DNA of 64,000 nucleotides from an uncultured Thermoanaerobaculia bacterium (GTDB lineage: Bacteria > Acidobacteriota > Thermoanaerobaculia > Multivoradales > Multivoraceae). Under the pieces are notes generated by a model. The model was not told the origin of the DNA and did not search any database. It saw nothing but the letters and a program-made list of their open reading frames with translations. Below, piece by piece: positions 11,775 through 36,362 of the stretch (the stretch's first letter is position 1; every line of letters begins with the position of its first letter). Location of the stretch: the NCBI GenBank assembly GCA_951812325.1, contig OX638294.1, positions 1,138,527 through 1,202,526 of the forward strand, written 5' to 3'. Made by a program: the position numbers and the translations under genes.

Positions 11775-11819
11775 ACGATCACGTTCCGTTCACCGCCGGC
11801 CGCCCGGGTGGCGGCGGTC

Positions 11820-17951: not shown

Positions 17952-19025
17952 ATGTCATCGGCTCCACACGATCAACCCGTCTGGCTCTGGTGGAGCGGCG
18001 GCAAGGACTCGGCGTGGGCCCTGCACACGCTGCGGAACGATCCGGAGTGGGAAGTGCGCGGGCTCGTGACACATGTCAACCGGCACAACGGTCGGGTGGC
18101 CATGCATGGAGTGCATCGACACATGATCGAGCGACAGGCGGCCGCGGTCGGCCTGCCGCTCCATGTGATCGAGTTCGACTGGGCGGCGTCCCGGAACGAT
18201 CACGACGCCGCCATCGAGGAGGGCCTCCTGCGCTGGTGCCGGGGCGGCCGGAAGTTCGTCGCCTTCAGCGAGCTCCTTCCCGGCCGTGCCATGCGACGCC
18301 GTTCGGCGCTTGTCGGCCGCATCGGACTCCACGCCGTGTTCCCGCTGCTCGGCCGCGACCCGGCCGACCACGCCGCGGAGATCCTGGAGGCAGGTTTGAA
18401 GGCCAGGGTGTGTTCCGTCGAATCGGACCGCCTGCCTGCCTGCCACGCGGGTTGCCGCTTCGACGAGGACTTCGTGGGGTCGCTGCCGCGAGGCGTCGAC
18501 CCCTGCGGCGAGGACGGCGAGTTCCACACGTTCGTCGAATGGGCGCCCGGGTGGTCGTCGCGGATTCCGACCGACGCTGGCGCCAGAATCGAGTGCTACG
18601 GCTTCGGATTCGCGGAGATCGTGGAGTCCTCTCGGGCGCCGCGGAAGGAAGAAGACCGCCGCCCCGGGACCGGCAACGACCCCTTCGGCTACTACGCCCG
18701 GCTGAGGAGGGTCCGCGAGCACGTCGATCAACATCTCGACGAGCCTCTCGACCTGCACGCTCTCGCGCCCGTCGCGGCGATGAGTGCCGGGGGGTTCGGC
18801 AGGTTCTTCCGCAAGGCCACCGGCCAGTCGTTCCACGATTGGCTCAACGAGCGCCGCCTCGAGCGGGCCGCCGTCCTCATCGGCGACCACAACGAACCGA
18901 TCGGGCGAGTGGCGGAGACCGTCGGTTTCGGTTCTGAACGAACGTTCCGGAGGTTGTTCCAGGGGAGATTCGGCTGTACTCCCTCGCGGTTCCGATCTCA
19001 GGCACGGGATACAGAAGCGGGATAG
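17952..19025 (+). CDS. Fusion protein: N-terminal PP-loop ATP pyrophosphatase (Dph6/MJ0570/DUF71-like, SGGKDS) and C-terminal AraC-family HTH domain
   Basis: N-terminal part: WLWWSGGKDSAWAL (the SGGxDS PP-loop) and a GEFHTFV motif, as in diphthine-ammonia ligase-like N-type ATP pyrophosphatases. C-terminal part, about 100 aa: LHALAPVAAMSAGGFGRFFRKATGQSFHDWLNERRLERAAVLI..ETVGFGSERTFRRLFQGRFGCTPSRFR, a canonical AraC HTH. It is a single uninterrupted 357-aa ORF. Confidence 0.65.
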   Translation: MSSAPHDQPVWLWWSGGKDSAWALHTLRNDPEWEVRGLVTHVNRHNGRVAMHGVHRHMIERQAAAVGLPLHVIEFDWAASRNDHDAAIEEGLLRWCRGGRKFVAFSELLPGRAMRRRSALVGRIGLHAVFPLLGRDPADHAAEILEAGLKARVCSVESDRLPACHAGCRFDEDFVGSLPRGVDPCGEDGEFHTFVEWAPGWSSRIPTDAGARIECYGFGFAEIVESSRAPRKEEDRRPGTGNDPFGYYARLRRVREHVDQHLDEPLDLHALAPVAAMSAGGFGRFFRKATGQSFHDWLNERRLERAAVLIGDHNEPIGRVAETVGFGSERTFRRLFQGRFGCTPSRFRSQARDTEAG

Positions 19026-19110
19026 ACGCGCCAGGCAGCCGCTCCAGACGGGTGGCAGTCCGGGACCGCTCTCGCCTCGATTCGCGGGCTCTTGCCACGG
19101 GCTGCCTAAG

Positions 19111-21077
19111 CCGAAGTTCTTGAGCTTCTGCGGCCCCGTGATGGTCGATAGTCGTTGCCAGGCTTGGGTTTGCGGGTTGTTGGCCGGTCGTTCGGGGGCG
19201 CATATCGTAGCCATGTAAAAATGAGAGAAGAGGTAGACAGTCACGACGATCTAGAGTACAATGCGAAGCCATGTACATCGAGAGCATACGCAACCGGAAC
19301 TCGCCGCCTGCCGTCCTGCTTCGAGAGTCCTACCGCGAGCACGGCAAGGTCAAGAAGCGCACACTCGCCAACCTCTCCAAGTGGCCGGACCATCTCGTCG
19401 AGGGGCTGAGGACCCTCCTCAGGGGCGGCGTCGCACTGCCGTCTCTCGATGCCGCCTTCGACATCGTCCGCGCCAGACCGCATGGACACGTTGCCGCCAC
19501 GCTCGGCGCCGCCAGACGGGTCGGTATCGAGCCCTTGCTCGACCGGAGGCGGTCGAGACAACGCAGCCTCGCGACCGCGATGATCGCCGCGCGCATCCTC
19601 GATCCCCGGTCCAAACTCGCGACCGCGCGAGGACTCGCGTCCGAAACGATCACTTCGACCCTCGGTGAAGAACTCGGTGTCGAGGAGGCGTCGGCCAGCG
19701 AGCTCTACGAGGCGATGGACTGGCTGCTCAAGCGGCAACCGCGAATCGAGCGGCGCCTGGCCAAGCGCCACCTCGAGGAAGGAGCCCTGGTCCTCTGCGA
19801 CCTGACCTCGGTCTACTTCGAGGGCTCGTCCTGCGAGCTTGCCGTGCACGGGTACTCCAGAGACCGCAAACGGGGCAAGGTGCAGATCACCTTCGGCCTG
19901 CTCTGCAACCAGGACGGCTGCCCCGTGGGGGTCGAAGTCTTCTCGGGCAATACCGCGGACCCCTCGACAGTGGCCGCGCAGGTGCACAAGCTCAAGGAAC
20001 GCTTCTCGCTGGACCGGGTGGTCATGGTCGGCGACCGCGGCATGATCACCGATGCGCGCATCAGGGAGGACCTCGACCCCTCCGGACTCACGTGGATCAG
20101 CGCCTTGCGGGCGCCGGCGATCCGCTCCCTGGCCGAACAGGGCCACCTGCAGCTGTCTCTCTTCGACGAGAGAGGCCTCGCCGAGATCAGCGCTCCGGAG
20201 CTCTTCCCCTCAGAGCGGCTGATCGCGTGCAGGAACCCCCTGCTGGCCGACGAACGCGCCCGCAAGCGCCAGGAACTGCTCTCCTCCACCGAGGTCCAGC
20301 TCGAAGCCATCGTCAAGGCCACACGGCGCCAGAAGAACCCCTTGCGCGGCAAGGTCAAGATCGCCGCACGCGCCACGCGCGCCCTCGACCGCTTCAAGGT
20401 CGCAAAGCACTTCGAAACCGAGATCGAGGACGACAGCTTCAGCTATCGCCGCAATCAGGCACGCATCGACGAGGAAGCCGCACTCGACGGCTTCTACATC
20501 ATCCGCACCAACGTCCCCGAGGACCAACTGACCGCGGCCGATGCCGTGCGCTCCTACAAGAGCCTCAGCCGCGTCGAACGCGCCTTCAGGAGCCTGAAGA
20601 GCGTCGACCTCAAGGTGCGGCCCATCTACCATCGACTCGACGACCGGGTACGCGCCCATGTCTTCCTGTGCATGCTCGCCTACTACGTCGAGTGGCACAT
20701 GAGGCGCGCACTCGCACCCCTGCTCTTCGACGACGAAGACCACGACCACAACACCCGATCACCCGTCCTGCCCGCCCGCAGATCGGCCACCGCCATGGCC
20801 AAGGTCAACTCAAGGCGAACCACCCACGGATTCCCCGTACACAGCTTCCAGACACTCCTCGCCGACCTCGCCACGCTCACACGCAACCGGGTCCGAATCC
20901 AGCAAGCCGGCGACTCCACTGCCGATCTGCTGGCCACGCCAACACCTCTTCAGAACCAGGCCCTCAAACTCCTGGGCGTGAAACCCTGAGGACACGTACC
21001 CAGTAGGCTGCAACCCCAAATCGACGAAAAACCCCACCACTACAGGGGATTCCTCGATTCCGCGCCGAGAACTTCGG
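19111..21077 (+). mobile_element. IS1634-family (IS4 superfamily) insertion sequence, about 1.96 kb, with imperfect terminal inverted repeats and a target-site duplication
   Basis: Left end CCGAAGTTCTTGAGC and right end GCCGAGAACTTCGG (reverse complement CCGAAGTTCTCGGC) are flanked by a duplicated CCTAAG / GCCTAAGCC (6-9 bp; the exact boundary is ambiguous). The uninterrupted target GGCGGCCTAAGCCGGAATCAGGTCT is present in the paralogous locus at about 26310-26336. Confidence 0.8.
19271..20989 (+). CDS. IS1634-family DDE transposase
   Basis: 572 aa. MYIESIRNRNSPPAVLLRESYREHGKVKKRTLANLSKWPDHLVEGLR is the hallmark N-terminus of IS1634/IS1549-type transposases. The DDE region is downstream. Confidence 0.9.
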   Translation: MYIESIRNRNSPPAVLLRESYREHGKVKKRTLANLSKWPDHLVEGLRTLLRGGVALPSLDAAFDIVRARPHGHVAATLGAARRVGIEPLLDRRRSRQRSLATAMIAARILDPRSKLATARGLASETITSTLGEELGVEEASASELYEAMDWLLKRQPRIERRLAKRHLEEGALVLCDLTSVYFEGSSCELAVHGYSRDRKRGKVQITFGLLCNQDGCPVGVEVFSGNTADPSTVAAQVHKLKERFSLDRVVMVGDRGMITDARIREDLDPSGLTWISALRAPAIRSLAEQGHLQLSLFDERGLAEISAPELFPSERLIACRNPLLADERARKRQELLSSTEVQLEAIVKATRRQKNPLRGKVKIAARATRALDRFKVAKHFETEIEDDSFSYRRNQARIDEEAALDGFYIIRTNVPEDQLTAADAVRSYKSLSRVERAFRSLKSVDLKVRPIYHRLDDRVRAHVFLCMLAYYVEWHMRRALAPLLFDDEDHDHNTRSPVLPARRSATAMAKVNSRRTTHGFPVHSFQTLLADLATLTRNRVRIQQAGDSTADLLATPTPLQNQALKLLGVKP

Positions 21078-21089
21078 CCTAAGCCGGAA

Positions 21090-21914
21090 TCAGGTCTGGA
21101 CCATCGTCTCCAGGTAGACGCCCTCGAGATCCGCCTGATCCAGGGCCTCCCGATCCAGGATGCGCTCCATCCTGCCCTTGCGCATGATGCCGACCCGGTC
21201 GCAGAGACTCTGCGCCCGGAGCAGGTCGTGGGTGCAGATCAGGATCGCGGCGCCGTCGCAACGCATCCCGTCCAGCAGGGTCAAAAGGTCCGCTGCCGCC
21301 TTCGGATCGAGACCTGACGTGGGTTCGTCCAGGAGAATCGCGGGCGCGCTGCGAATCACCGCCACCGCCAGACCGACACGCTGACGCATGCCCTTCGAGA
21401 ACCGGTCGACGCGCCGATCAAGGACATCCTCGGCCAGCCCCACACGAAGAAGCGCCTCGCGAACGCGGTCCCTGGTCGGCGACACTCGCTGGCCCACCGC
21501 GCTGAAGAACTCCGCGTTCTGCACCGCGGTCAACGCCGGGTAGAGGGCCACGTTCTCGGGAATGAGGTCGAGGCGGCGCTTTGCTCTGCGAGGCTCGCGG
21601 GCGACCTCGATCCCGTCGATCAGGGCGCGGCCACCCGTGGGTCGGATGAAGTCGAGGAACATGTTGATCGTCGTCGTCTTGCCGGCGCCGTTCGGCCCCA
21701 TCATGCCGAGAATCTCTCCCGGCGCCACTTCGAAATCCACGCCGTCGACGGCAAGCGTGTCGAACAGCATCATCGGTACACGCTGCTCGTATGGAACGGA
21801 AACGATCGTCGGCTCCAGCAGCACGCCTTCCTGATGGCCGCGAACGGTCTTGAGGCTGACGATCGTGCCGACGGCAGCTCCGCCCGTCTCGCGGCGCGTC
21901 CTCCCGCTCACCAA
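21090..21914 (-). CDS. Chimeric ABC transporter ATP-binding protein (copy A). The ATPase lacks its native N-terminus and is fused to a fragment of the periplasmic-protein gene; possibly a pseudogene
   Basis: From AVDGVDFEVAPGEILGMMGPNGAGKTT to the C-terminus it is identical to the ATPase at 26337-27071. Residues about 17-50 (IVSLKTVRGHQEGVLLEPTIVSVPYEQRVPMMLFD) match an internal segment of the 27068-28606 protein. Walker A/B and the signature motifs are intact. Confidence 0.6.
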   Translation of the reverse strand: MVSGRTRRETGGAAVGTIVSLKTVRGHQEGVLLEPTIVSVPYEQRVPMMLFDTLAVDGVDFEVAPGEILGMMGPNGAGKTTTINMFLDFIRPTGGRALIDGIEVAREPRRAKRRLDLIPENVALYPALTAVQNAEFFSAVGQRVSPTRDRVREALLRVGLAEDVLDRRVDRFSKGMRQRVGLAVAVIRSAPAILLDEPTSGLDPKAAADLLTLLDGMRCDGAAILICTHDLLRAQSLCDRVGIMRKGRMERILDREALDQADLEGVYLETMVQT

Positions 21915-21935
21915 TCGCGAACCGGCCGCGGACGG

Positions 21936-23393
21936 TCATCGGCAGTCATAGCGCTGAAAGCGCAGGAAGGTGAACGCACCCGCCACGCCGACGAAGAGGA
22001 GCATCCACAGCTGGTCCTGAAGCGTCTGGGCCGCCAACTCCGCCGTGCTCGGCGGTCGCCAGACAAACCGGGGCATCTCGTCCGCGGGCGCCGGCACCTC
22101 CGAGTAGTCCAGCGTGCTCAGTGCTTGCAGCACGTACTCCTCGCCATCGTCGTCGGTCACAATGGCCTTGGCGCCGCTCCGGAACGCCGCCTCCCGGTGC
22201 AACTGGCGTTGGTTCAGCACGAAAGACGTGAACACCGGCTTGAACCCGGACAACTGGCGACGGAACTCCCTCCGCCCGGATGAGCCGGTAACCGCCAAGC
22301 GGTTCATCGCGCCGCGCACGAGAGTGTGGGGCGACAAAACGCCCCAACGATCGATCCACTCCTCCTGGGCGGCGAATTGCAGCAGATGCTGGCTGCGCAG
22401 CTCGGCATAACCCTCCTCCCTTTCCCGCAGGGCTGCTTCCTGGTCGACCCACATCTTCGACTCGAGATCCCGGATCCGGCGACGTTTCTCGGCGGAGGAA
22501 ATCTCTGGCGTGCGAACGATTTCCTGAAGCGGCATGGAGGAAACAGCCAGCCGCATTCGGTAGGCCTGCTGGTGAACGGAGATGTTCCGCTGGAACGTCA
22601 TCTCCGATTCGACCGGATGAAACACAGAGGCCAGAACAACGATGAGCCCCGGCACGGCCAAGGCCAGGAGCGACCATGCGCCGACCGCCCGCTGCAGAGC
22701 GGACTCGGGCATCGACGTACTCACCGAGGCCGCCATCCCGAGCAACACGTTGAAAAGCAGGAACACGACAAACTGCACCACGGCCAGGACCAGAACCAGC
22801 CCCTGCGAGGCAGTCGGAAGCAGACCACCGCCGATCACGGCAACCGCGAGTCCCGCGAGGACGCCGAGCACCAGGGATGCGGACACGACAAGGAAGCAAG
22901 CCAGCATCTTGCTCAGGATGAGTGGTACGCGCCCCGTTGGCCGACTCGCCAGGACCCGCAAGGTTCCGGCAGCCTTCTCCCCCGCCACCGCATCGAAACT
23001 CAGGGCTACCGCCATCAAGCTGTAGAAGAAGATGACGACCGCCGTCCAGTCAAGCGGTTCGGCGGCAAAGAGAAACGAGCGATCGGAAACCTCCGTCTCG
23101 AACACGTCGACGAGATGCGGACGAACGACTGCGGCTTCGCCCCACTGCTCCCTGGACCCGCCGCGCAGGAAACCCAGGGAAGGAGCCGGTCTGGGGACGA
23201 CGACCCGTTCCAGATTCGCGGTGCTCTCTGCCTTGTGCGCCAGCCGCGACCAACTGGAGCGCAGCTCCCGAACCTCGTCAAGGTGAATCAGCGTCGCGGC
23301 CACGATCAGCAGAGGACCGGCAACGAACAGCACCAAAAGCCGATAGCTGCGGAGGTACCTCGCGAGCTCCCAGCGAATCAGATGACCGAGCAC
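21936..23393 (-). CDS. ABC-2-type transporter permease with a large extramembrane domain (copy A, large permease; DUF3526-like)
   Basis: 485 aa, hydrophobic helices at both ends, paralogue of 28606-30060 (about 50% identity by eye). Tightly linked to the ATPase. Confidence 0.65.
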   Translation of the reverse strand: MLGHLIRWELARYLRSYRLLVLFVAGPLLIVAATLIHLDEVRELRSSWSRLAHKAESTANLERVVVPRPAPSLGFLRGGSREQWGEAAVVRPHLVDVFETEVSDRSFLFAAEPLDWTAVVIFFYSLMAVALSFDAVAGEKAAGTLRVLASRPTGRVPLILSKMLACFLVVSASLVLGVLAGLAVAVIGGGLLPTASQGLVLVLAVVQFVVFLLFNVLLGMAASVSTSMPESALQRAVGAWSLLALAVPGLIVVLASVFHPVESEMTFQRNISVHQQAYRMRLAVSSMPLQEIVRTPEISSAEKRRRIRDLESKMWVDQEAALREREEGYAELRSQHLLQFAAQEEWIDRWGVLSPHTLVRGAMNRLAVTGSSGRREFRRQLSGFKPVFTSFVLNQRQLHREAAFRSGAKAIVTDDDGEEYVLQALSTLDYSEVPAPADEMPRFVWRPPSTAELAAQTLQDQLWMLLFVGVAGAFTFLRFQRYDCR

Positions 23394-23419
23394 GCCCGCC
23401 TACCCGCCACCGCTTCGGC

Positions 23420-24676
23420 TCAGCAAACGTCCAGACGTTCAAGACCGACGCCAGCCGCGAGCAGCAGCGCGACGGTCCCGAAAGCGAGCGCTCCTGCCGG
23501 AAGGCTCGCCTGACGTAGGGAACTGCCGATGGAGACCGACTCGTGAACCGGCTCCGGCAAGCCCCCGATGTCGAGCGGCTCACCGTAAACCGACCGTTTC
23601 TCTCGCTCCGGGTAAAGAGCGAGTTTGCCGGCTTGCCAGGCAATGAAGGACCTCTCGGCCGAGTCGACCTGGCGCCGAAAGTGCTCGTGATCGGCGGGCG
23701 AGGTACCTGCCAGCACCTGACCGCCATCGAGAAAGGCGGTAAACGGCAGCAGCACCGCCAAGCGCCGGTAGTACCGATACGCCATAACCTGAATGTTCCG
23801 CCCCGCCATCGAGCGGTTCCGGTCCTCCTCAAGGTTCTCAACCCCGGCAACGACAGACGCCGACGCCACCGGAACGGTCGGCGCCAGCCGGGATGCCGCC
23901 CACCCGGCAAGCTGTGGGTAGAGCGCCGCAGAAAACGCCCACACCAGGACCCCCACCACGAGCGAGGTTTCCACCTGCCTGCAGACGACGGACAGCAGCA
24001 GAGAAAACGCCAGCCAGAAACAGCCGTAGAGCGCGACCAAGCCAAAGAAGAACCCTGCCCGCCACCACTCTTCCCCTTCCAGAGGCGGGCCGGCTCCGGT
24101 CGCCGCCCACACCAGAAAACCAAGCAACAACATCGAACACGGCAGGACCACGGTCAGCACGCCCCCGACGAACTCGCCCGTCAGCAGGGTCGACCGCGGC
24201 AGCCCTCTGGCCAGCTGCTGCTTGAGCGTGCCCTTCTCACGCTCGCCGTTGACCACCGCATGGCCGGCGACCAGGCATGAAAAGCCGAACACCAGCGCCA
24301 GCACCCACGCCAGATCCACGTTCAGGCGCCGCGCATCCTCCACCACCGGCCGATCCCGCCGCGTGATCCGAGGCTCACCAAACCGACCCGGAATCGCAGC
24401 CCTTGATCCCAACTGCTCTCCCACGCCTCGACTCAGGAGGCTGAGCACCGCCGGAGGCCGCTCCAGGCCAAGCTCGAGTTGCATGTAGACCTGAGCCCTC
24501 TCGAAAGACATCTGGCCGGCCAGACGGCTGGCCTCGAATAATCGAACCCGTTCCTGATAGTCGATCCAGGAAACCTGGACGGTTGCGCCAACCATCACGG
24601 CGCCAACGGCCCAAGTCCCCAAGAACCAACCGTTCTGCAGGCTCAGCCTGAGTCGCTTGAGCGCAACAATCCACAT
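23420..24676 (-). CDS. ABC-2-type transporter permease (copy A, second permease)
   Basis: 418 aa membrane protein, paralogue of 30067-31329 (MWIVALKRLRLSLQNGW.. versus MLRIALKRCRLSARSGW..). Confidence 0.65.
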   Translation of the reverse strand: MWIVALKRLRLSLQNGWFLGTWAVGAVMVGATVQVSWIDYQERVRLFEASRLAGQMSFERAQVYMQLELGLERPPAVLSLLSRGVGEQLGSRAAIPGRFGEPRITRRDRPVVEDARRLNVDLAWVLALVFGFSCLVAGHAVVNGEREKGTLKQQLARGLPRSTLLTGEFVGGVLTVVLPCSMLLLGFLVWAATGAGPPLEGEEWWRAGFFFGLVALYGCFWLAFSLLLSVVCRQVETSLVVGVLVWAFSAALYPQLAGWAASRLAPTVPVASASVVAGVENLEEDRNRSMAGRNIQVMAYRYYRRLAVLLPFTAFLDGGQVLAGTSPADHEHFRRQVDSAERSFIAWQAGKLALYPEREKRSVYGEPLDIGGLPEPVHESVSIGSSLRQASLPAGALAFGTVALLLAAGVGLERLDVC

Positions 24677-24767
24677 GGCCCTCAGTCCGCAGACGCCCCT
24701 CCCAAACCCCGGATCCCCAGCAACGGACCAAACTCGCAGGCTCTCTGGGGTTGACCCACTGAGTGGA

Positions 24768-25865
24768 CTACCGAATCCAGTCCGTCACCGGCGGAAGTTC
24801 TGCCCGCCAAAGCGACGAAAAACCAGTAAACCAAGCGACGCCATCCGCAACCGAGACGGATCCGAAACTGGCCTGGGCGCCGCGCTGCCTGAGAATCCCG
24901 AGCTGGCCTCCGGTCGGAGACAGAACGTACAACTCGCGGCCCCCTACAAGGCAGAAAACGAGGCCCGTCCGCGAGTCAACAGCCACACCCGTCAGCATGG
25001 GAAGCGCGTTGATTCCGTCGGTCGCCAGGTTCTCGGTGATCCAAGGCGTCCAGGCTTCCCGCTCTTGCATCGCCACGCCCATCAGGTCGCCAATAAGCCG
25101 ACCCCGAAGACGTGTCTGAAACTCAAGTTCCCCGTCAACCGAGTACCGAGAAACGACAGGAGCCGCCGTGAACGCTGCCACCAGGGCATCGGACGGCGCG
25201 ACCGCCATGACGACGCGGTTCAGTCGCACGGCGAAGCGCCGGTCTCGGCAGCGGCTGTGTTGATCGCAATCAGGATACACATCGCCCGGCCTCAGGAGTT
25301 CCCCGATCAGAAGTTGCCTGTCGCCGAGTGGCGAGTAGCGCACGATTACCGAACCTTGGCGAGGTTGATTCAGAAACATCCGGCCCTTTGAGTCAAGCGC
25401 AATCGAATAGCTGTGCCAAGCTTCGGCGTCGTCCGGCGTCGTTCCCTGCAAGACGGTGTCCAGAGAGCCACCGGTCCGAAGGGAATAGCCGTGGATGGAC
25501 ATCAGACCGGCGGTCGAAACCAATCGTACCGTATCCGCGCTTCCGACAGCGAAATCCATCGGAAAGCGCATCTCTCCCGGCCCCTGTCCGACGCGGCCGA
25601 GCTGCCGCTTGATCGCGCCAGATGCATCAAGATCAAGCAGGCGATGGTTCAATCGCTCCAGCAGGAGAAAACCATCATCATGAGGCGTCAGACGATAGGC
25701 GCCATTCACCGTCAGATCTTCAAAGACGCGAACCGGCTCAAAGGTTCCTTCCGGAACCTCTTCTGTTTCTTCTGACGCCGACGCAACCCTCGCCACAACA
25801 AACAGACAAAGTGACGCAAACGCCAAAAGAATGATGCGGCGCGCGCTACTGCCTGTGAGCATTTG
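24768..25865 (-). CDS. Secreted hypothetical protein (beta-propeller-like)
   Basis: Signal peptide MLTGSSARRIILLAFASLCLFVVARVASA chosen as the start, because the longer ORF start overlaps the upstream gene. No diagnostic motif. Confidence 0.45.
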   Translation of the reverse strand, partial: QMLTGSSARRIILLAFASLCLFVVARVASASEETEEVPEGTFEPVRVFEDLTVNGAYRLTPHDDGFLLLERLNHRLLDLDASGAIKRQLGRVGQGPGEMRFPMDFAVGSADTVRLVSTAGLMSIHGYSLRTGGSLDTVLQGTTPDDAEAWHSYSIALDSKGRMFLNQPRQGSVIVRYSPLGDRQLLIGELLRPGDVYPDCDQHSRCRDRRFAVRLNRVVMAVAPSDALVAAFTAAPVVSRYSVDGELEFQTRLRGRLIGDLMGVAMQEREAWTPWITENLATDGINALPMLTGVAVDSRTGLVFCLVGGRELYVLSPTGGQLGILRQRGAQASFGSVSVADGVAWFTGFSSLWRAELPPVTDWIR

Positions 25866-26163
25866 GCACCTCCAGTTCGTCTTCAATCGTCGACACCGCC
25901 TGCACCCGGCGGTGATACAGCAGAATCCCGAGACCTCCGCCGAACCCATGTTCAGCAGCCACATTCTGCCGGCCTTCGGAACTTTCAACTCTCCAGTCCG
26001 GCATCCGCTCGCCGTAAACCGCTACGGTCCCCGAAGGGCGCAGCATGTAGAACAACCAAGCGACGCTGACTAACGCACTCCCTACGACAAGCCCGCCGAC
26101 CAAGGACTCGCGCCAAGGGAACTTGTGACGGGGTCTGGCGTGGGGCATACGGTACTCAGCCAC
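25846..26163 (-). CDS. Small single-pass membrane protein, hypothetical
   Basis: 105 aa with one TM helix (LVGGLVVGSALVSVAWLFYML). Its stop overlaps the downstream start, suggesting translational coupling. Confidence 0.35.
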   Translation of the reverse strand: MAEYRMPHARPRHKFPWRESLVGGLVVGSALVSVAWLFYMLRPSGTVAVYGERMPDWRVESSEGRQNVAAEHGFGGGLGILLYHRRVQAVSTIEDELEVPNAHRQ

Positions 26164-26336
26164 TTGACTACAACGGTCGAGGAAGCCACGAGAAGGTCTG
26201 AGAAGAGAGTCTAGGGTCGGAGGCCTTCACCTGTCAAGTGCCAGAGCTGTCCAGCGTTCGGCGTTGCCCGGCTGCTGTTCGCTTCGTGACGAGGCCTCGA
26301 TTCGCGGACTCTTGCCGCGGGCGGCCTAAGCCGGAA

Positions 26337-27071
26337 TCAGGTCTCGACCATCGTCTCCAGGTAGACGCGCTCCAGATCCGCCTGATCCAGGGCCTCCCGA
26401 TCCAGGATGCGCTCCATCCTGCCCTTGCGCATGATGCCGACCCGGTCGCAGAGACTCTGCGCCCGGAGCAGGTCGTGGGTGCAGATCAGGATCGCGGCGC
26501 CGTCGCAACGCATCCCGTCCAGCAGGGTCAAAAGGTCCGCTGCCGCCTTCGGATCGAGACCTGACGTGGGTTCGTCCAGGAGAATCGCGGGCGCGCTGCG
26601 AATCACCGCGACCGCCAGACCGACACGCTGACGCATGCCCTTCGAGAACCGGTCGACGCGCCGATCAAGGACATCCTCGGCCAGCCCCACACGAAGAAGC
26701 GCCTCGCGAACGCGGTCCCTGGTCGGCGACACTCGCTGGCCCACCGCGCTGAAGAACTCCGCGTTCTGCACCGCGGTCAACGCCGGGTAGAGGGCCACGT
26801 TCTCGGGAATGAGGTCGAGGCGGCGCTTTGCTCTGCGAGGCTCGCGGGCGACCTCGATCCCGTCGATCAGGGCGCGGCCACCCGTGGGTCGGATGAAGTC
26901 GAGGAACATGTTGATCGTCGTCGTCTTGCCGGCGCCGTTCGGCCCCATCATGCCGAGAATCTCTCCCGGCGCCACTTCGAAATCCACGCCGTCGACGGCA
27001 AGCGTGCCGTCCTCGAACCTCTTCGTGAGTCCGATTGCCTTGATCACTGTCGACTCTCCAATGTGGGTCAG
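26337..27071 (-). CDS. ABC transporter ATP-binding protein (copy B, intact)
   Basis: IKAIGLTKRFEDGTLAVDGVDFEVAPGEILGMMGPNGAGKTT (Walker A), LSKGMRQRV signature, and ILLDEPTSGLD Walker B. The start is taken as the TTG/GTG just after the upstream gene's stop; the ORF track's longer start at 27152 overlaps that gene. Confidence 0.85.
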   Translation of the reverse strand: MTHIGESTVIKAIGLTKRFEDGTLAVDGVDFEVAPGEILGMMGPNGAGKTTTINMFLDFIRPTGGRALIDGIEVAREPRRAKRRLDLIPENVALYPALTAVQNAEFFSAVGQRVSPTRDRVREALLRVGLAEDVLDRRVDRFSKGMRQRVGLAVAVIRSAPAILLDEPTSGLDPKAAADLLTLLDGMRCDGAAILICTHDLLRAQSLCDRVGIMRKGRMERILDREALDQADLERVYLETMVET

Positions 27072-28606
27072 CGTCGGCTGAGGAGGATGCCGCCCCGGAT
27101 CAGCGCCGCGAGCAGCGCCACCACGGCAGCCAAAAGAAGCAACGCCAGCCACGGATTGCGGGCTGCCGTCACGTGAATGCGAACTGTCTTGGGATCGCTC
27201 TCCACCAGACGATCACCAGCCAGCGTGCCGACGACGATCGTCCCTTCGTAGTCCCCCAGGATCACGTCGGCGGGCGGCGCAAGCGTCACGTTGACCGCTT
27301 CGCCGGTGCCGGGGGCGAGCGCATCGAACAGCCGCGGTTCCGCTCCCACCCGCCAACCGAACGGCGCCTCGACAACGACTTCCACCTGCTCGAGATCCAG
27401 ACTGCCCGCATTGACGATCCTGACTTCGAACGAGCCGGTATCGCCGCGCAGAATCTCCTGGTAGAGGTTCGCCGCCTCGACCTCGAGCGCGGCGACACCG
27501 CGCGGAATGAGCTCCAGATCCAGCCTGCCCCCGCCTCCGGCCGCGTCACGGTCGGGCTCGAACAACACGGAGAACGGAATCGACGTGCCCGGCTGCACCG
27601 CAGCCGTCGGTCGACTCGGCAACGTCAGCGCCAGACGCAGACTGCGGCTGGTCACCCCCTCCGACAGGAACATCTGACTGAACGTCGCCTCGGTCTCGGG
27701 ATCAAAGAGCCGCGCCGCAACTTCGGGCGGAAGACCCTCAAGCCGCACTCCGTACGTCGCGTCATCGACGTCGAAGCGCTCCACCTCAAGGACGAACTCG
27801 GCCTCTTCACCCAGTTCAGCGTCCAGGGCAAGCTGAGCGGAACGCACGACCAAGGGTTCCTCGGCGCCGGATCGCTTGCCCAACAGGACCTGTCGATCGT
27901 GGGTCTGATGATTGTAGCGAAGCTCGACGAGCAACTCCTCGACATCGGCCAGAAGAAGTCCGAAGTCGACGGTGGTCGGTTCGTCGAACAGCATCATCGG
28001 TACACGCTGCTCGTATGGAACGGAAACGATCGTCGGCTCCAGCAGCACGCCTTCCCGATGACCGCGAACGGTCTTGAGGCTGACGATCACGTTCGATACG
28101 CCGGTCGGAAGCGGCAGGTCCAGCAAACCGCCCGACTGCTGCTCGACCACTTCCGCCTCGACGCCGGAGGACCAGCGCGCCACCAGCTCCAGTTCGACAC
28201 GGGCCTCGCCGTCGGGCCGCCTGTACTTCCGGGCCGCGCGCAGGACGACCTCGGGATCCGCCGCGATCATCTCCAGATAGGCTTGTGCCAGATCGAGATC
28301 CGCGAGCCTGAGCTGCGCTTTCTCCGTATCCAGCTCCGCCTCGGAGAGCAGCTCGTTCTCGAACAGCTCCTCGGCGCGACCGAGCTGCTTCTCGGCTTCC
28401 TCGTACCTGATCCGGGCAGCCGCGTACTCGAGGCCAAGCCGACCCGAAGCCTCCGTCTGACCAGGCGCCGGCCCCGCCGCCGCGACGATCAGGAGGGCGG
28501 TAGCGGCCAGGCCCGCGAAACCGTCCCGGCGCCGCCTGAACCTGGCGGGCCAGGCCGCCTGGGGCCTGGCGGTAGCGGCGGCCGTTCGATCAAGAGCGGC
28601 GGGCAT
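27068..28606 (-). CDS. Periplasmic protein with N-terminal coiled coil, beta-sandwich-like repeats and a C-terminal TM anchor (component of the transporter locus)
   Basis: About 512 aa from the MMPAALDR start. There is an N-terminal signal/TM segment, a coiled-coil stretch (EEAEKQLGRAEELFENELLSEAELDTEKAQLRLADLDLAQ), and a C-terminal hydrophobic helix (WLALLLLAAVVALLAALI). It is absent from copy A apart from the fused fragment. Confidence 0.55.
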   Translation of the reverse strand: MPAALDRTAAATARPQAAWPARFRRRRDGFAGLAATALLIVAAAGPAPGQTEASGRLGLEYAAARIRYEEAEKQLGRAEELFENELLSEAELDTEKAQLRLADLDLAQAYLEMIAADPEVVLRAARKYRRPDGEARVELELVARWSSGVEAEVVEQQSGGLLDLPLPTGVSNVIVSLKTVRGHREGVLLEPTIVSVPYEQRVPMMLFDEPTTVDFGLLLADVEELLVELRYNHQTHDRQVLLGKRSGAEEPLVVRSAQLALDAELGEEAEFVLEVERFDVDDATYGVRLEGLPPEVAARLFDPETEATFSQMFLSEGVTSRSLRLALTLPSRPTAAVQPGTSIPFSVLFEPDRDAAGGGGRLDLELIPRGVAALEVEAANLYQEILRGDTGSFEVRIVNAGSLDLEQVEVVVEAPFGWRVGAEPRLFDALAPGTGEAVNVTLAPPADVILGDYEGTIVVGTLAGDRLVESDPKTVRIHVTAARNPWLALLLLAAVVALLAALIRGGILLSRR

Positions 28607-30060
28607 CATCGGCAATCGTAGCTTGCGAAGCGCCGGGCGACCCATCCGGTTGCACCCGCCACGAAGAGCACCATCCATAGAACGTCTCCCACCGTCTGGT
28701 TCACCAGTTCTCCCGGCGATGGCCGGCGCCAGGCGAACCGCGGCCCCTCGCCGGGCCGTATCGGGAGCGCCGCGTAGGACAGGCCCGTGATCCCGCGCAG
28801 TCGGTATTCCTCGCCCTCCGCGTCCTGGATCAAGGCCATCGCCACGCCTTCGCCCGCTTCATCGCGTCGCTGTCGTCTCTGGTCGATCACGAACTCGGTG
28901 AAGGTCGGCTCGAACCGGTCGACCTGCCGCAGGAACTCCCTCTCGCCGCTCCACCCGGCAAAAGAAAGCCGATCCAGCGAGCGGCGCAGCAGACTGAACG
29001 GCGAGAGAGCGCTGAACTTCTCCGTCCATGTCCGTTGCGCCGCCGACTGGCGCAGATAGTCGCGACGCACTTCCGCCAGGGCTCGCTCCTGCTCCGCCAG
29101 GGCGGCTTCCTGATCCGCCATCATGTCGGCTTCGAGTGACGCGATCCGGGCACGCTTCTGAGCCGGCGAGAGGTCCTCCCTGTTCACGATCCCGGCGAGC
29201 GCCTCAGACGAGACCGAGAGCCGTTCCCGGAACTCCATGGACACGAGCCCGAAGTTCCGCTGCAGTTCGGCCTCCGATTCCAGCGGATGGAGCATCGAGC
29301 CCGCCACCGTGACGCCGGCCGGCACGACCAGCGCCAGAACCGTCCAGGCGCCCAAAGCCCTCTGCAGCGCGGCCGCCGGTCGAGCGACGCTGACCGATGC
29401 GGCCACTCCGAGCAGCACGTTGAACAGGAGAAACACGAGCACCAGCATGACCGCCAGGACAAGGTTCGGAGCTGTCTCGGCGGAAAGGGAGCCGCCCCCG
29501 TCAACCGCGACCACGGCAAGCGAGGCCACCGCACCGAGGACGAAGGAGAGGGCGACGACCAGGAAGCTGCCGGCGATCTTGCTCAGGATGAGCGACATGC
29601 GCCCGATCGGTCTGGCTGTCAACACCCGGAGGGTTCCCTGGGCCTTCTCGCCCGCCACCGCATCGTAGGTCAGAGCCACGGCCATCAGGCTGTATAGAAG
29701 GACGACGACAGCGGCCCAGTCGAGAGGCTGGGCGACGAAGACCCACGACCGCTCGGAAACACCCGGAATGACAGGCGCCGCCAGGTGGGGCCGCAAGACG
29801 GTTGCCTCCGTTCGATCGGCGCCGTCGGCCGAAACGAAACCCAGAGTCGGGTACGGCCGCGGCAGGAGGACCCAGTCCAGATTCGCGTCGCTCTCCGCAG
29901 ACCGGGCGAGACGCGAGTAGGCGGACACCTGCTCCCGCAGGTCGATCTGGTGGATCGTCGCGGCGACGACCATGCACAGGGGGCCCGCCACGACCGCCAG
30001 CAGCAGCCTGTAGCTCTTGAGATGGCGAGTCAGTTCGCCAAGAACCAGGACACGGAACAT
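28606..30060 (-). CDS. ABC-2-type transporter permease with a large extramembrane domain (copy B)
   Basis: 484 aa, paralogue of 21936-23393. Confidence 0.65.
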   Translation of the reverse strand: MFRVLVLGELTRHLKSYRLLLAVVAGPLCMVVAATIHQIDLREQVSAYSRLARSAESDANLDWVLLPRPYPTLGFVSADGADRTEATVLRPHLAAPVIPGVSERSWVFVAQPLDWAAVVVLLYSLMAVALTYDAVAGEKAQGTLRVLTARPIGRMSLILSKIAGSFLVVALSFVLGAVASLAVVAVDGGGSLSAETAPNLVLAVMLVLVFLLFNVLLGVAASVSVARPAAALQRALGAWTVLALVVPAGVTVAGSMLHPLESEAELQRNFGLVSMEFRERLSVSSEALAGIVNREDLSPAQKRARIASLEADMMADQEAALAEQERALAEVRRDYLRQSAAQRTWTEKFSALSPFSLLRRSLDRLSFAGWSGEREFLRQVDRFEPTFTEFVIDQRRQRRDEAGEGVAMALIQDAEGEEYRLRGITGLSYAALPIRPGEGPRFAWRRPSPGELVNQTVGDVLWMVLFVAGATGWVARRFASYDCR

Positions 30061-30066: not shown

Positions 30067-31329
30067 TCAGACCCCCGCCTCGGTCAGGTCCAGCTTCTCG
30101 AAGCCGATCACGCCGCCAACCAGCAGAAGGGTCGTGAAGAGCGAAAGCGCGCCAACCGGGAGTGCCGCGCCACGGAGCGAAGCTTCGACCGGGAGCGGAC
30201 GATACTCCGGCGCCGGCAGACCTCCGATGTCGAGAGCCTCCTGGCCGCTGTGCATCGTGTTCTCGCGCTCAGGGTAGCGCTCCAGTTTCTCCGCCTGCCA
30301 CGCGATGAATCTTCTCTCCACGTCGTCCACATCGGCGAGAAACGCGATGTGGTCATCAACGGATGTCGTGGCCACCAGCCGCGCAGCCTCCTGGAATGCG
30401 GTGACCGGGCCAAGCGAGGCCAACGTCCGGTACCGCATGTACTGCTCGGCCCGCACGTTGCGCCGGGTGCGAATCGCCGCACGCCGAGCGGCCACGTCCC
30501 GGTCGGCCGACGCTGCCGCGGCTTCCAGCGCAGGCGGCGCTGCGCGCGTAGCCGCCCAACCCGCCAGAGGCTGGTAGAGCGCGGCCGAGGACACCCAGAT
30601 CAGGATGCCGACCAGAAGCGACGTCTCCCGCTGCCTGAGGAAGACCGAGAGACACAGGGAAAGAGCCACCCAGAACGCGCCGTAGAGAGTCGCAAGGCCG
30701 AAGAACAGGAGAACCCGAAGCCACTCGCGACCGTCCAGCGAAGGACCAGCCGTGGCCGCCCAGGCCAGAAAGCCGAGGCAGAACAGCAGCAGCGGAATCG
30801 CCACGACGATCAGGCCGCCGAGGAACTCGCCAAGCAGCAGGTGCGGCCTCGGCAGACCGCTTCGGAGCTGGAGCTTGAGCGTACCGGCCCGTCGCTCGCC
30901 GTTGATCACGCCGTGACCGGCGAAGACGCCGGTGAAGCCGAGCACCAGCGCGAAGGTCCAAGCCAGATCCGCGTTCAGTCGCCGCGCCGCACCCGTTCGC
31001 GGCCGGTCGCGCCGCGCAAGCTCGGGCTCGCGATAGCGGCCCCTGATCCTCGCGCTCACGCCGAGATCCTCACCGACCCCTCGGCTGATCAGGCTCAGCG
31101 GCGTCGGCGGCCGCTCGAAACCGATCTCCACGCCGACGTACACCGTGGCGTCCTCCGCCTTCACCCGCTGAGCGATCCGGTTGCCTTCGAACAGATCAAC
31201 GCGCTCCCCGTAGCCGATCCACCCGACCCAGACCGTAGCCGCCGCCAGCGCAGCGCCCACGGCCCAGGCGCCAAGCAGCCAGCCGCTCCGGGCACTGAGA
31301 CGGCAGCGCTTCAGCGCGATTCTCAGCAT
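30067..31329 (-). CDS. ABC-2-type transporter permease (copy B, second permease)
   Basis: 420 aa, paralogue of 23420-24676. Confidence 0.65.
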   Translation of the reverse strand: MLRIALKRCRLSARSGWLLGAWAVGAALAAATVWVGWIGYGERVDLFEGNRIAQRVKAEDATVYVGVEIGFERPPTPLSLISRGVGEDLGVSARIRGRYREPELARRDRPRTGAARRLNADLAWTFALVLGFTGVFAGHGVINGERRAGTLKLQLRSGLPRPHLLLGEFLGGLIVVAIPLLLFCLGFLAWAATAGPSLDGREWLRVLLFFGLATLYGAFWVALSLCLSVFLRQRETSLLVGILIWVSSAALYQPLAGWAATRAAPPALEAAAASADRDVAARRAAIRTRRNVRAEQYMRYRTLASLGPVTAFQEAARLVATTSVDDHIAFLADVDDVERRFIAWQAEKLERYPERENTMHSGQEALDIGGLPAPEYRPLPVEASLRGAALPVGALSLFTTLLLVGGVIGFEKLDLTEAGV

Positions 31330-31753
31330 TCGCGTTCTTCCAGCAAGTCAGGGCGAAAGGCGCGATGGCCCTTTGGCGTCTCCTCCCTGGAGGTTGTCGT
31401 CAATGGAGGTGGATACAACCGCACACGGTTGGCTTTGCCTGGCGCCGCCGCCTTGCGAGCTGGCGAGTCCGCTGAATCGATCAGCGAGTCCGTCAGCGCG
31501 TTCCGCGTGTTGGGCATCGGTCACAAGAAACAGGCTAGCCGAGCGCCGCAGTCGGCAATAGGGCCCTCAGACGACCAAAACCGGACACCAGAGAACCAGA
31601 AACGGCCAATCCGGTACCCGGCGCCGGTTTGCTGGCCGAACCACCCGGACCGTTTCCGCCGCCGCGGCGCCGACCGTGACGCCCATCGCTCCGGGATGGA
31701 GCAAACCGAGAGTGGCGATGGTCAAGGGATCGCCTGTCGCCGTTCGGCCGGCG

Positions 31754-32752
31754 TCAGCCGCCCGACGTCCCCGCCGCCCTGGCGGCCGCCTCGGCTTCCG
31801 CGTCCTCCGCCCGGGCGCCGCGAAGCAGGTTCAACATGCCGTAGTTCCCCTCGTGGCAGGCGTACTCGAACATCGGCAACGGGTTCCTCGTCATCGGCAC
31901 GACGGCCGTCCACCGTCCGGTGAAGGACTCCGGATCGTCGATCGTGTACTCGTAGACGAGCCGGTCCTGCTCCACGCGGGTGAACCTCTCGGTCAGGCGC
32001 ATGTTCGGGCCCGAACCCCGGAAGCTCGTCTGGTCGGTGAAGTTCGTCGTCACGACGACCAGGGTGTCCCCTTCCCAGTGGCCTCGCGAGTCGCCCCGCC
32101 ACTGGCGGACGTCCTCGGGCAGCGGGGAGCGTCCGTCGAGCGGCACGATGCGCGAGTCGTGCACCATCTCGACCAGCAGCGCGACCGTCTCCTCGGTCTG
32201 GAAGATCTGGACGTTGTTGTTGTACGCACTCGGACTCATCGGCGGCCCGGCGTTGAAGCCCAGGATGCACCGTTCGGCGACGCCGCGGTCCTCGGGCCCG
32301 TGGGCGGGTCGGCGGCGCGCCGCGGTGCGCTCGGCAACCCGTTGCTTCGCCGCCTGGGTCAGCTCGGGAATCCGGCCGTCCGGCGGATCGACGACGAGCG
32401 ATGTGCGCCGATCCTCGGTCAGCTTGTCCCCGTAGTCCCACCAGAACTGGTTGTAGGCGTTCGCCACGTCCGCCTGAGCCGAGAGACCGTCCTCGGTGCG
32501 CCGGTCCTTGTTTCGCCGCGCCAGCGTCCGCTGCTCGAACTCCGCCGCCTCTTCGCCGCTGAACCGCTCCTGCTCGCCCAGCTCCTCCGGACGCTCGAGC
32601 GGCGTGATCGTCCGGAAGTCCCAGACCCCGCGCAGGTCGGGCGCGCCCCAGGGAGTGCGATCAAGCTCCGGCGCGCCTTGTTGCGCGGCGAGGGGAGTTC
32701 CAGCCAACACGACGATGGCGAACACTGCGATCGGCGTCTTGCGTTTGCCCAT
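31754..32752 (-). CDS. Secreted protein of unknown function (paralogue family A, member 3)
   Basis: Signal peptide. GHWEGDTLVVVTTNF, LVYEYTIDDP and FEYACHEGNY motifs are shared with 3740-4825. Confidence 0.6.
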   Translation of the reverse strand: MGKRKTPIAVFAIVVLAGTPLAAQQGAPELDRTPWGAPDLRGVWDFRTITPLERPEELGEQERFSGEEAAEFEQRTLARRNKDRRTEDGLSAQADVANAYNQFWWDYGDKLTEDRRTSLVVDPPDGRIPELTQAAKQRVAERTAARRRPAHGPEDRGVAERCILGFNAGPPMSPSAYNNNVQIFQTEETVALLVEMVHDSRIVPLDGRSPLPEDVRQWRGDSRGHWEGDTLVVVTTNFTDQTSFRGSGPNMRLTERFTRVEQDRLVYEYTIDDPESFTGRWTAVVPMTRNPLPMFEYACHEGNYGMLNLLRGARAEDAEAEAAARAAGTSGG

Positions 32753-34160: not shown

Positions 34161-35197
34161 ACCGCCAGGTCCCCGGCCTGGCCGGCGCCGGCGGCGGGCG
34201 GCGAAGAATCAGGGTACAGGTGGCAGGCGACGCGGGCCGGGCCGACCGCCTCGAGCAGAGGCTCCACGCGATTGCAGTGGTCGAGCGCCTTCGAACAGCG
34301 CGGGTGGAAGCGGCAGCCGGACGGCGGGTTGCGGACGCTCGGCACTTCACCGGCGATCAGGTGGTGCGCCCTCGCCGCCTCGACCACCGGATCCGGCGTC
34401 GGTACGGAGGCCAGGAGCGCCTCGGTGTACGGATGCCTCGGCCGCTCGAACAGCTCGTCCCGCGTCGCGATCTCGACGATCCGACCGAGGTACATCACCC
34501 CGACCCGGTCGCTGATGTGGCGCACGACGGACAGGTCGTGGGCGATGAACAGGTAGGTGAGACCCAGCTTCGCCTGCAGGTCCATCAGCAGGTTGAGCAC
34601 CTGCGCCTGAATCGAGACGTCGAGCGCCGACACCGCCTCGTCGCAGATCAGCAGATCCGGCTCGAGCGCCAGAGCCCGGGCGATGCCGATCCGCTGGCGC
34701 TGGCCGCCCGAGAACTGGTGCGGGTAGCGGTTGGCCATCGACGGCAGCAGGCCGACCAGGTCGAGCAGTTCCGCGACCCGCTCCCGGAAGCGGCGGCGAC
34801 TCCCCGCCACGCGGTGGACCTTGAGCGGTTCGCCGACGATCTCCCGCACCCGCATCCGCGGATTGAGCGACCCGAACGGATCCTGGAAGACCATCTGCAT
34901 CCGCCGGCGAAGCGGCCGCAGCCGGCGCTGGCTGGCCTCCGAGATGTCCTCGCCGTCGAAGACGATGCGGCCGGCCGTCGGTTCCAGCATGCGCAGGATC
35001 GCCAGCGCCGTCGTCGACTTGCCGCAACCGCTCTCCCCCACCAGGCCGAAGGTCTCGCCGCGCCTGAGATCGAACGACACCCCGTCGACCGCCTTGACGG
35101 ATCCCGTCCGCCGCCGCATCAGCACCCCTTCGGTGACCGGGAAGTGGACCTTGAGATCCTCGACGCGAAGCAGCACCCGGTTGGCGGCTGAACTCAC
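34157..35197 (-). CDS. oppF: Oligopeptide/dipeptide ABC transporter ATP-binding protein OppF/DppF-like
   Basis: [14 protein letters not shown].., Walker [18 protein letters not shown], and a C-terminal oligopeptide-ABC domain (CRFHPRC). The start is the GTG that overlaps a TGA inside repeat copy 1. The ORF track's longer N-terminus (to 35689) is frame-incompatible junk. Confidence 0.8.
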
Positions 35198-35534
35198 GGC
35201 GCGGATTCCGCCTCGTAGCCGTAACAGGCCCAGGCCCGCGAGCCGGCGGCGGCTTCGAGCGACGGCGGCGCCGCCAGGCAGCGATCGTGCGTGTACGGAC
35301 AGCGCGGCGCGAAGGCGCATCCCGCGGGCAGCGCGGCGAGGTCCGGCGGTTGACCCTCGGCGGCTGAACTCACGGCGCGGATTCCCCCTCGTAGCCGTAA
35401 CAGGCCCAGGCCCGCGAGCCGGCGGCGGCTTCGAGCGACGGCGGCGCCGCCAGGCAGCGATCGTGCGTGTAGGGACAGCGCGGCGCGAAGGCGCACCCCG
35501 CGGGCAGCGCGGCGAGGTCGGGCGGTTGACCCTC
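35183..35534. repeat. Tandem direct duplication, 2 x 176 bp (about 97% identical), spanning the oppD 3' end and the oppF start junction
   Basis: GGCGGCTGAACTCACGGCGCGGATTCC... occurs at about 35183 and again at about 35359. The copies differ at only about 5 positions. Copy 2 holds the true oppD C-terminus. Copy 1 holds a duplicate 57-aa C-terminal fragment plus the oppF GTG start. Confidence 0.85.
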
Positions 35535-36362
35535 GATCGAGTCGAGGCGGCCGCCGCATTCACCCTCCAGGCGCGGCACGGAGCGAAGCAGCCCCTGGGT
35601 GTAGGGGTGGCGCGGGTCGGCATAGAGGGCCGCCGCGGGCCCGCTCTCCACGATCCGGCCGCCGTACATGACCGCCACCCGGTCGGCATAGCGGGCGACC
35701 ACGCCGAGGTCGTGGGTGATCAGGATGAGCGCCGAATCCGCCTCCCGGGTGCGCTCCTTGAGCAGTTCCAGGATCTGCGCCTGCACCGTCACGTCGAGCG
35801 CCGTCGTCGGCTCGTCGGCGATCAGCAGGCGCGGATGGCAGGCGAGCGCCATCGCGATCATCACCCGCTGGCGCATGCCGCCCGAGAACTGGTGGGGATA
35901 GTCGCCAAGCCGCTTCGCGGCATCGGGAATGGCCACCGACTCAAGGTGTTCCACCGCCTGTTCGAGCGCCTCCCTCCGGCTGAGCCCGCGGTGCAGTCTC
36001 AGCGGCTCGGCGACCTGCCGGCCGATCGTCAGCACCGGATTGAGCGAGGACATCGGCTCCTGGAAGATCATCGCGATGCGGTTGCCCCGCACCGACCGGA
36101 TGCCGGCATCGTCGAGCGCGAGAAGGTCCTGACCCTCGAACAGGATCCTGCCGTTCTCGATTTGTCCCGGGTCGGGAATCAGCCGCAGGATGGAGAGCGC
36201 CGACACGCTCTTGCCCGAGCCGCTTTCGCCGACGATCGCCAGCGTCTCGCCCGGCGCGACCTCGAGCGACAGCGACGTCACCGCCCTGACCTTCGGCCGG
36301 TTGCCGAACCCGCCGCGGAAGGTGACGTCCAGATTCTCGATCCGGAGCAGAGGTTCCGTCAC
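35370..36362 (-). CDS. oppD: Oligopeptide/dipeptide ABC transporter ATP-binding protein OppD/DppD-like
   Basis: [38 protein letters not shown]..; C-terminal CAFAPRCPY motif. Confidence 0.85.

Follow-up and report, generated by a model that had tools for sequence, protein, structure and literature searches.

A patch probably copied from a neighboring operon into a degenerating ABC-2 exporter locus of an uncultured Thermoanaerobaculia bacterium

We analyzed a window of 64,000 nucleotides from contig OX638294.1 of an uncultured Thermoanaerobaculia bacterium, in which two related ATP-binding cassette (ABC) transporter loci, here called A and B, lie in tandem on the minus strand. Judged from their sequences, these are two anciently diverged four-gene ABC-2 exporter operons. 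Locus B is intact, and locus A is a degenerating operon. Our overall reading, which we consider likely, is that the decaying locus A carries an ectopic patch from locus B and that the chimeric ATPase reading frame found there is probably dead. The genes of the two loci are as follows.

30067 to 31329, minus strand: locus B permease 1 (perm1B), 420 aa, Pfam ABC2_membrane_2, 53% identical to perm1A
28606 to 30060, minus strand: locus B permease 2 (perm2B), 484 aa, Pfam ABC2_membrane_2 and DUF3526, 51% identical to perm2A
27068 to 28609, minus strand: locus B NEW3/NPCBM_assoc-domain protein (NEW3_B), 513 aa as called
26337 to 27047, minus strand: locus B ATPase (ATPase_B), 236 aa, GTG start with GGAGAG 8 nt upstream
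24768 to 25862, minus strand: conserved upstream gene of the A-type operon, 364 aa, with homologues upstream of the operon in the related contigs L002, L004, and L005
23420 to 24676, minus strand: locus A permease 1 (perm1A), 418 aa, intact
21936 to 23393, minus strand: locus A permease 2 (perm2A), 485 aa, intact

The start of NEW3_B overlaps the stop of perm2B by 4 bp, and its protein has a hydrophobic N-terminal segment, a coiled-coil stretch that weakly matches periplasmic adaptor proteins, and, at the C terminus, a transmembrane helix. Every strain compared has intact A permeases, and at the DNA level these are about 70 to 72% identical to the B permeases where alignable, which is the sole similarity that blastn detects between the two regions outside the patch. 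Locus B has no paralogue of the 364-aa gene that precedes locus A; a 332-aa open reading frame (ORF; 32752-31754) just upstream of locus B was compared with it and is not a paralogue. In or beside that ORF, 925 bp of the window (31528-32452) are absent from L006, a contig of the same metagenome, in which only a 101-aa ORF is called at this place.

When the window was compared with itself, using blastn and a repeat search, three matches linked the end of locus A to locus B. Positions 21075-21759 correspond to 26322-27006 at 99.4% identity (4 mismatches in 685 bp, no gaps), for which, at such a length, chance is impossible. Positions 21759-21864 correspond to 27983-28088 at 98.1% identity (2 mismatches in 106 bp), and 19074-19113 correspond to 26294-26333 with 3 mismatches in 40 bp, continuing the first tract across an insertion sequence (IS). 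The patch totals 818 bp, and its putative donor, locus B, lies 5.2 kb upstream. Its parts and their counterparts in locus B, together with the native remnant that adjoins it, are the following.

21865 to 21939, minus strand: native remnant of the locus A NEW3 gene (NEW3_A), 71 to 75 bp, about 25 codons, resembling the 5' end of NEW3 in the related contig L007
21759 to 21864, minus strand: patch segment 1, equal to NEW3_B 27983-28088 with 2 mismatches
21085 to 21759, minus strand: patch segment 2, part a, equal to ATPase_B from codon 15
19074 to 19111, minus strand: patch segment 2, part b, the tail 3' of the ATPase stop, split from part a by the IS
27983 to 28088, minus strand: putative donor segment 1, NEW3_B codons about 175 to 209, copied into locus A
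26294 to 27006, minus strand: putative donor segment 2, ATPase_B codon 15 through the stop and the next 43 bp, copied into locus A
27007 to 27982, minus strand: stretch of locus B without a locus A counterpart, 976 bp

Segments 1 and 2 abut in copy A but lie 976 bp apart in copy B, where the intervening DNA holds the 3' 60% of NEW3_B, the ribosome-binding site between the genes, and the first 14 ATPase codons. Three junctions bound and divide the patch. At J1 (21864/21865), NEW3_A codon 25 or thereabouts is joined to about codon 175 of NEW3_B, such that locus A is also without the first roughly 150 internal NEW3 codons. The ATG of the native remnant overlaps the perm2A stop (ATGA at 21936-21939), which leaves 71 bp (21865-21935) between the overlap and the patch; the 106-bp NEW3_B-like piece that follows is in a different frame from the remnant. 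At J2 (21759), codon 209 of NEW3_B is joined to codon 15 of ATPase_B with 1 nt of microhomology and with the frame kept. At J3 (19073/19074), homology to locus B stops 43 bp past the ATPase stop, at a position that in locus B is the center of a 10-bp palindrome, CGAGG|CCTCG (about 26289-26298). With a blastn word size of 7, no similarity was found beyond J1 (21865 onward against 28089 onward) or beyond J3 (below 19074 against below 26294). The 43-bp downstream tail was sought in L002, in other orthologues, and in L015, a contig of a related species, and is conserved nowhere among them.

Much of this architecture had been anticipated in a preliminary description of the DNA. It had put the permeases at about 50 to 55% identity and taken the duplication to be old, which agrees with the 53% (perm1) and 51% (perm2) measured on the proteins, and it had called the ATPase segments nearly identical, as they are (99.4%, against about 70% for permease DNA), with coordinates that were off by no more than about 25 bp. 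The roughly 105 bp of the NEW3_B gene that it had noticed in copy A measure 106 bp. Its view of copy A as copy B minus about 950 bp was right in structure, the missing stretch being 976 bp (27007-27982), and its "periplasmic-protein" gene was the correct match, with the product being a NEW3-domain, membrane-anchored protein. The recent non-allelic copying of the ATPase region that it had proposed is borne out as a nonreciprocal copy by the near-identical tract in diverged paralogues. The third match (19074-19113), J1, and the native NEW3_A remnant go beyond that description.

A comparison with relatives, drawn from 17 protein clusters of perm2 homologues, indicates what locus A once contained. 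Every long contig (L002, L004, L005, L009, L010, and L012) has the same order: a gene of about 360 aa, a small ORF, perm1, perm2, NEW3, and the ATPase. The NEW3 protein of these relatives has about 505 aa, with a start overlapping the perm2 stop, and their ATPases have 236 to 248 aa. Contig L002 is syntenic with locus A, having GroEL/GroES and then an M16 peptidase after the ATPase, as in the window. From this synteny and the constant operon order, it follows that locus A formerly had its own NEW3 and ATPase genes; by this comparison, almost none of the former and none of the latter appears to survive. The closest A-type relative, L007 (79%), is represented by a contig of only 2.9 kb that stops 145 bp into NEW3.

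The window comes from a HiFi metagenome (European Nucleotide Archive ERZ18545498, with hifiasm-style contig names; lineage Thermoanaerobaculia, Acidobacteriota) in which further strains are represented. Both loci are present in L001 (contig atg000640l), which is 99.2% identical to the window over 21 kb, and in L006 (contig ptg000223l, 611 kb), which is 99.8% identical to the window across them; a fourth haplotig, L016, reaches its contig end before the junction. J1, J2, and J3 are identical in the window contig, L001, and L006, which are separately assembled HiFi contigs, and copy A of L006 carries private variants that are present in no B copy. The same nonhomologous junctions together with copy-specific variants in three contigs indicate that the junctions are real and not a misassembly, which settles against an artifact the doubt about assembly chimerism that the preliminary description had raised. 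Between window positions 13420 and 34661, differences from L001 are clustered, with 0 to 1 per 500 bp over 17.0 to 28.5 kb and up to 25 elsewhere, a pattern that suggests a recombination mosaic among coexisting strains.

The IS that divides the patch has the following parts.

19112 to 21076, plus strand: IS1634-family insertion sequence, 1965 bp, terminal inverted repeat CGAAGTTCT
19104 to 19111: left copy of the 8-bp target-site duplication GCCTAAGC
21077 to 21084: right copy of the 8-bp target-site duplication GCCTAAGC

Its transposase (19271-20989, 572 aa) matches the IS1634-family NCBIfam model with an E value of 5e-98. The element sits inside the patch tail, and L006 carries the chimera with an uninterrupted, empty IS site. 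Since the IS has its own 8-bp target duplication and the chimera-bearing L006 has an empty site, the IS came later and did not cause the rearrangement, and the earlier notion of a probably IS-associated event has to be given up. Between the IS and GroEL, the window has a 357-aa AraC-type helix-turn-helix protein with Diphthami_syn_2 domains (17952-19025). L006 does not have that gene, its A locus being directly next to GroEL, and in L015 the gene is present elsewhere, upstream of a B-type remnant.

The direction of copying was addressed with a relative-divergence ratio, with bootstrap confidence intervals (CI), in place of neighbor-joining (NJ) bootstrap trees of perm1, perm2, NEW3, and the ATPase, whose resolution was too low to decide it by themselves. 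The ratio is the distance to a reference set (L004, L005, L009, L010, and L012) normalized by the divergence within that set. It is 0.90 to 0.92 for the A permeases and 1.15 to 1.25 for the B permeases. For the shared ATPase it is 1.20 to 1.22 (95% CI, 1.01 to 1.47), and for NEW3_B it is 1.21 (95% CI, 1.09 to 1.33), a value that is less clean because the NEW3 of L002 is itself anomalously fast (1.19). Contig L015, whose GroEL region is 92.7% identical to that of the window at the DNA level, bears on the same question. Residues 1 to 151 of its perm1 are 86% identical to perm1B and 59% identical to perm1A; collinear after B-type permease remnants, NEW3 residues 45 to 291 follow at a uniform identity of about 87% with no drop across codon 174, and the ATPase after NEW3 is 86 to 92% identical in DNA. 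The B-like divergence of the ATPase and NEW3_B, taken with the B-type operon of L015, argues well that the NEW3-ATPase pair is native to locus B, with B the probable donor and A the recipient. At positions 10001-12250, L015 has a B-type operon with large internal deletions (perm1B residues 1 to 151 fused to the perm2B C terminus) and no A locus, and this operon stands directly beside GroEL. In this assembly, which has 5x coverage and is error-prone, the arrangement could be the outcome of recombination between two ATPase repeats.

Two overlapping reading frames run through the patched end of locus A.

21090 to 21914, minus strand: chimeric ORF, 274 codons from a TTG, called as 273 aa from the GTG at 21911
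21418 to 21939, minus strand: wrong-frame ORF, 173 codons, opened by the ancestral coupled NEW3_A start and running across ATPase sequence

The 274-codon ORF that had been reported earlier (21914-21090, minus strand) does exist and reads ...VPMMLFD|TLAVDG... across the junction, with about 50 foreign residues ahead of the ATPase, which sets in at T15. No record matched the 273-aa chimera in an exact look-up. Residues 57 to 200 match PF00005 (E value, 1.8e-29), and Walker A, the Q-loop, the signature, Walker B, the D-loop, and the H-loop are all present, with GPNGAGKTT, FSKGMRQR, ILLDEPTSGLD, and CTHD identical to ATPase_B. What the chimera is without is native residues 1 to 14 (MIKAIGLTKRFEDG), that is, beta-strand 1 and the A-loop residue F11 (Y in the family consensus), so that it lacks a beta-strand 1 with an A-loop aromatic about 25 residues before Walker A. 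The substitute Phe lies two residues nearer to T15 (F-D-T, versus native F-E-D-G-T). When the chimera was modeled with AlphaFold2 (AF2), the predicted local distance difference test (pLDDT) score was above 90 for residues 54 to 274, the nucleotide-binding domain (NBD) core, and below 50 for residues 28 to 51; the model does not place the foreign peptide.

Expression signals and strain variation point in the same direction. The Shine-Dalgarno sequence and the start codon of the ATPase lay in the missing 976 bp, and no counterpart of the ATPase_B motif GGAGAG-N8-GTG was found ahead of the chimera's ATG at 21773 or its GTG at 21911. The coupled ATGA start at 21939 is in a different frame from the chimera and gives it neither a start nor coupling. 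In L006, the gene is split by the loss of 1 bp at 21286 (the calls are of 180 aa and 64 aa), and this copy further differs by an additional G near 21882 and by two private nonsynonymous changes; polymorphisms of the B copies within the ATPase are synonymous except at two C-terminal sites. The alignment of the window with L006 covers 10.4 kb and contains two indels, both of them within the 0.8-kb chimera, and locus A has 12 substitutions (7 nonsynonymous) versus 3 in locus B, small counts in each case. The chimera is thus most likely a pseudogene within a locus under relaxed constraint, and the offset Phe, the lost Shine-Dalgarno sequence and start, and the L006 frameshift argue with moderate force for loss of function, contrary to the preliminary suggestion that it may work. 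The 274-codon ORF would be an accident of the in-frame junction, now decaying.

As we reconstruct it, the patch would have been copied nonreciprocally from locus B into locus A, bringing 106 bp of mid-NEW3_B and ATPase_B from codon 15 to 43 bp past the stop. J1, J2, and J3 are essentially without flanking homology, which calls either for a conversion or copy with illegitimate deletions or for a single templated repair with template switches. By the former route, an ectopic copy or conversion from B would have been followed by illegitimate deletions; by the latter, one templated repair event would have switched templates. The stepwise copy-plus-deletion route and the template-switching route explain the data equally well. 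As a more specific proposal, the patch might be the trace, in a natural bacterial population, of one templated break repair in which synthesis on the paralogous operon changed template twice at 0 to 1 nt of microhomology, stopped at the palindrome center, and gave rise to substitutions only beside the junctions; we regard this as unlikely.

The timing of the event was read from seven copies of the shared sequence, of which three are A and four are B. Fixed differences between A and B number only five (21837, 21832, 19103, 19097, and 19088), and the remaining variation is strain-specific and can be placed on a tree with no homoplasy. With so few fixed sites and the rest strain-specific, the patch predates the split of the three strains and is far younger than the A/B duplication. 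Ongoing exchange between A and B was considered for the alleles shared at 21098, 21122, and 21126 and was dropped, as a simple mutation tree suffices with no homoplasy. The order of events would be an old duplication, then the patch, then strain divergence, and then IS insertion in the patch tail.

The patch can be set beside two known processes. Interlocus (ectopic) gene conversion, of which bacterial examples are tufA/tufB, rRNA operons, and the transfer from pilS to pilE, is alike in giving a short, near-identical, nonreciprocal tract in diverged paralogues with the donor intact, and here too the donor and the recipient are near each other on a single chromosome, in direct orientation. The tract is nearly identical and the donor unchanged, as in gene conversion. 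However, the patch has no homologous flanks, consists of two noncontiguous donor pieces, and has left its recipient broken. As no alignable similarity extends beyond J1 or J3, the patch is not a classical conversion tract, whose ends would lie in alignable homology; and the nonhomologous ends, two pieces, and broken recipient are not those of the RecA-type conversion that keeps function. Microhomology-mediated template switching, of the microhomology-mediated break-induced replication (MMBIR) or fork stalling and template switching (FoSTeS) type, resembles the patch in its noncontiguous donor patchwork, 0 to 1 nt of microhomology, and substitutions near the junctions. In that comparison the patch is known from its end product alone, which sequential conversion and deletions fit equally. 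In either case the event is of a known kind, with a product that looks more like illegitimate or template-switching repair than like conversion.

Other explanations deserve to be weighed against a patch from B into A. A misjoin between repeats could be suspected in a metagenome-assembled chromosome with repeats of about 700 bp at 99% identity, but the junctions are nonhomologous, unlike the product of a repeat collapse, and they are common to three contigs that differ in IS presence and in private single-nucleotide variants and indels inside copy A, which makes an artifact extremely unlikely. The adjacent IS, which lies 14 bp downstream of the chimera stop codon, might have driven the rearrangement by an IS-mediated deletion or by transposing a segment. 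That is very unlikely: its clean target duplication lies inside the copied tail with B homology resuming on the far side, L006 has the chimera despite the empty site, and no IS end coincides with any patch junction. The reverse direction, in which the native NEW3-ATPase pair of locus A was copied into B and then suffered two deletions in A, has some phylogenetic appeal, since NEW3_B groups with the A-syntenic L002 at 95% NJ bootstrap, the ATPase is closest to that of L002 (78%), and the A copies hold the state of some relatives at two C-terminal ATPase sites. Against it stand the B-like rather than A-like divergence of both genes, the collinear B-type operon of L015 with its NEW3 uniform over the would-be breakpoint and a similarly close ATPase, a 5' end of NEW3_B that is unlike the A remnant, and the need for three events rather than one or two, and we consider it quite unlikely.

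A functional chimera would be one in which the NEW3-derived peptide (...VPMMLFD) replaces beta-strand 1 and the A-loop aromatic and locus A is a working three-gene transporter. The in-frame junction, the Walker A to H-loop motifs identical to those of ATPase_B, the confidently predicted NBD core, and the intact A permeases would suit it; the misregistered Phe, the low pLDDT of residues 28 to 51, the want of a Shine-Dalgarno sequence and of a believable start, the ancestral coupled one being in another frame, the L006 frameshift and private nonsynonymous changes, and the absence at locus A of the NEW3 partner present in every related operon make it unlikely. Among the less ordinary readings, expression of an N-terminally rewired ATPase to serve the orphaned A permeases is a weaker one than the single templated repair. 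Several observations nevertheless count against an ectopic patch from B and a dead chimera. The chimeric ORF is open in two of the three strains (the window and L001) with its NBD core motifs intact, and the L006 frameshift sits in a T4 run of a HiFi contig, where an error in the consensus is conceivable. Resolution is poor in the NJ trees for NEW3 and the ATPase, and the grouping of NEW3_B with L002 hints at the opposite direction, or at two long branches. L015 rests on a 5x assembly full of frameshifts, and its ATPase adjoins GroEL, where that of locus A would, so that L015 could itself be recombinant. The fixed A/B differences, five in number, are all no more than about 30 bp away from J1 or J3, with none in the 745 bp between, an edge clustering that the simple model fails to predict. 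Finally, an exact-pattern scan of metagenome contigs and a protein-pattern scan seeded with the perm2A/P0002 alignment found no genome in an intermediate state, nor any closer A-type relatives.

The transporter itself appears, on the basis of sequence matches, to be an uncharacterized ABC-2 (type V fold) system. ATPase_B matches NosF (E value, 3.5e-37) and the nucleotide-binding domains of ABCA proteins (E value, about 1e-50), and the perm2 family profile gives a weak match to NosY (E value, 7.6e-9). The likeness to NosFY-type exporters is thus a NosF-like ATPase and a NosY-like permease, as distant sequence matches only. Nos systems differ from the present loci, whose two permeases are large and heterologous (418 and 485 aa, DUF3526 being present in one) and whose partner is a membrane-anchored protein with a NEW3 domain, and no Nos domains (NosD, NosL, or NosZ) were found among the neighbor genes of the loci and relatives. 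Given the NEW3 partner, the two large permeases, and the lack of Nos genes, the transporter does not belong to the Nos systems. No paper mentioning DUF3526 came up in a literature search.

Several other repeats occur in the window. A 177-bp tandem duplication (35183-35535; two copies, 97.7% identity) that is single copy in L006 spans the boundary between two minus-strand genes for oligopeptide-type ABC ATPases (ORFs 36362-35370 and 35689-34157), and an 84-bp pair (36396-36479 and 40440-40523, 97.6%) flanks opp-like permease and binding-protein genes. There are also a tandem pair of about 390 bp (49325-50144, 78.6%), a 600-bp paralogous pair (43429-44024 and 45612-46195, 71%), and arrays of 39 bp x 4.4 (63311-63480) and 44 bp x 2.8 (9153-9280).

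The value of the finding lies mainly in annotation and method, as this is ordinary operon decay with an ectopic patch and involves no new mechanism or protein family. Gene calling presents the 273-aa "ABC transporter ATP-binding protein" as an intact gene, although it is better treated as a pseudogene. The 685-bp direct repeats, 5.2 kb apart and 99% identical, offer a substrate by which the A locus may be deleted. The order of events is clean and datable, and it is usable, with strain-resolved HiFi metagenomes, to study ectopic repair in uncultured Acidobacteriota.

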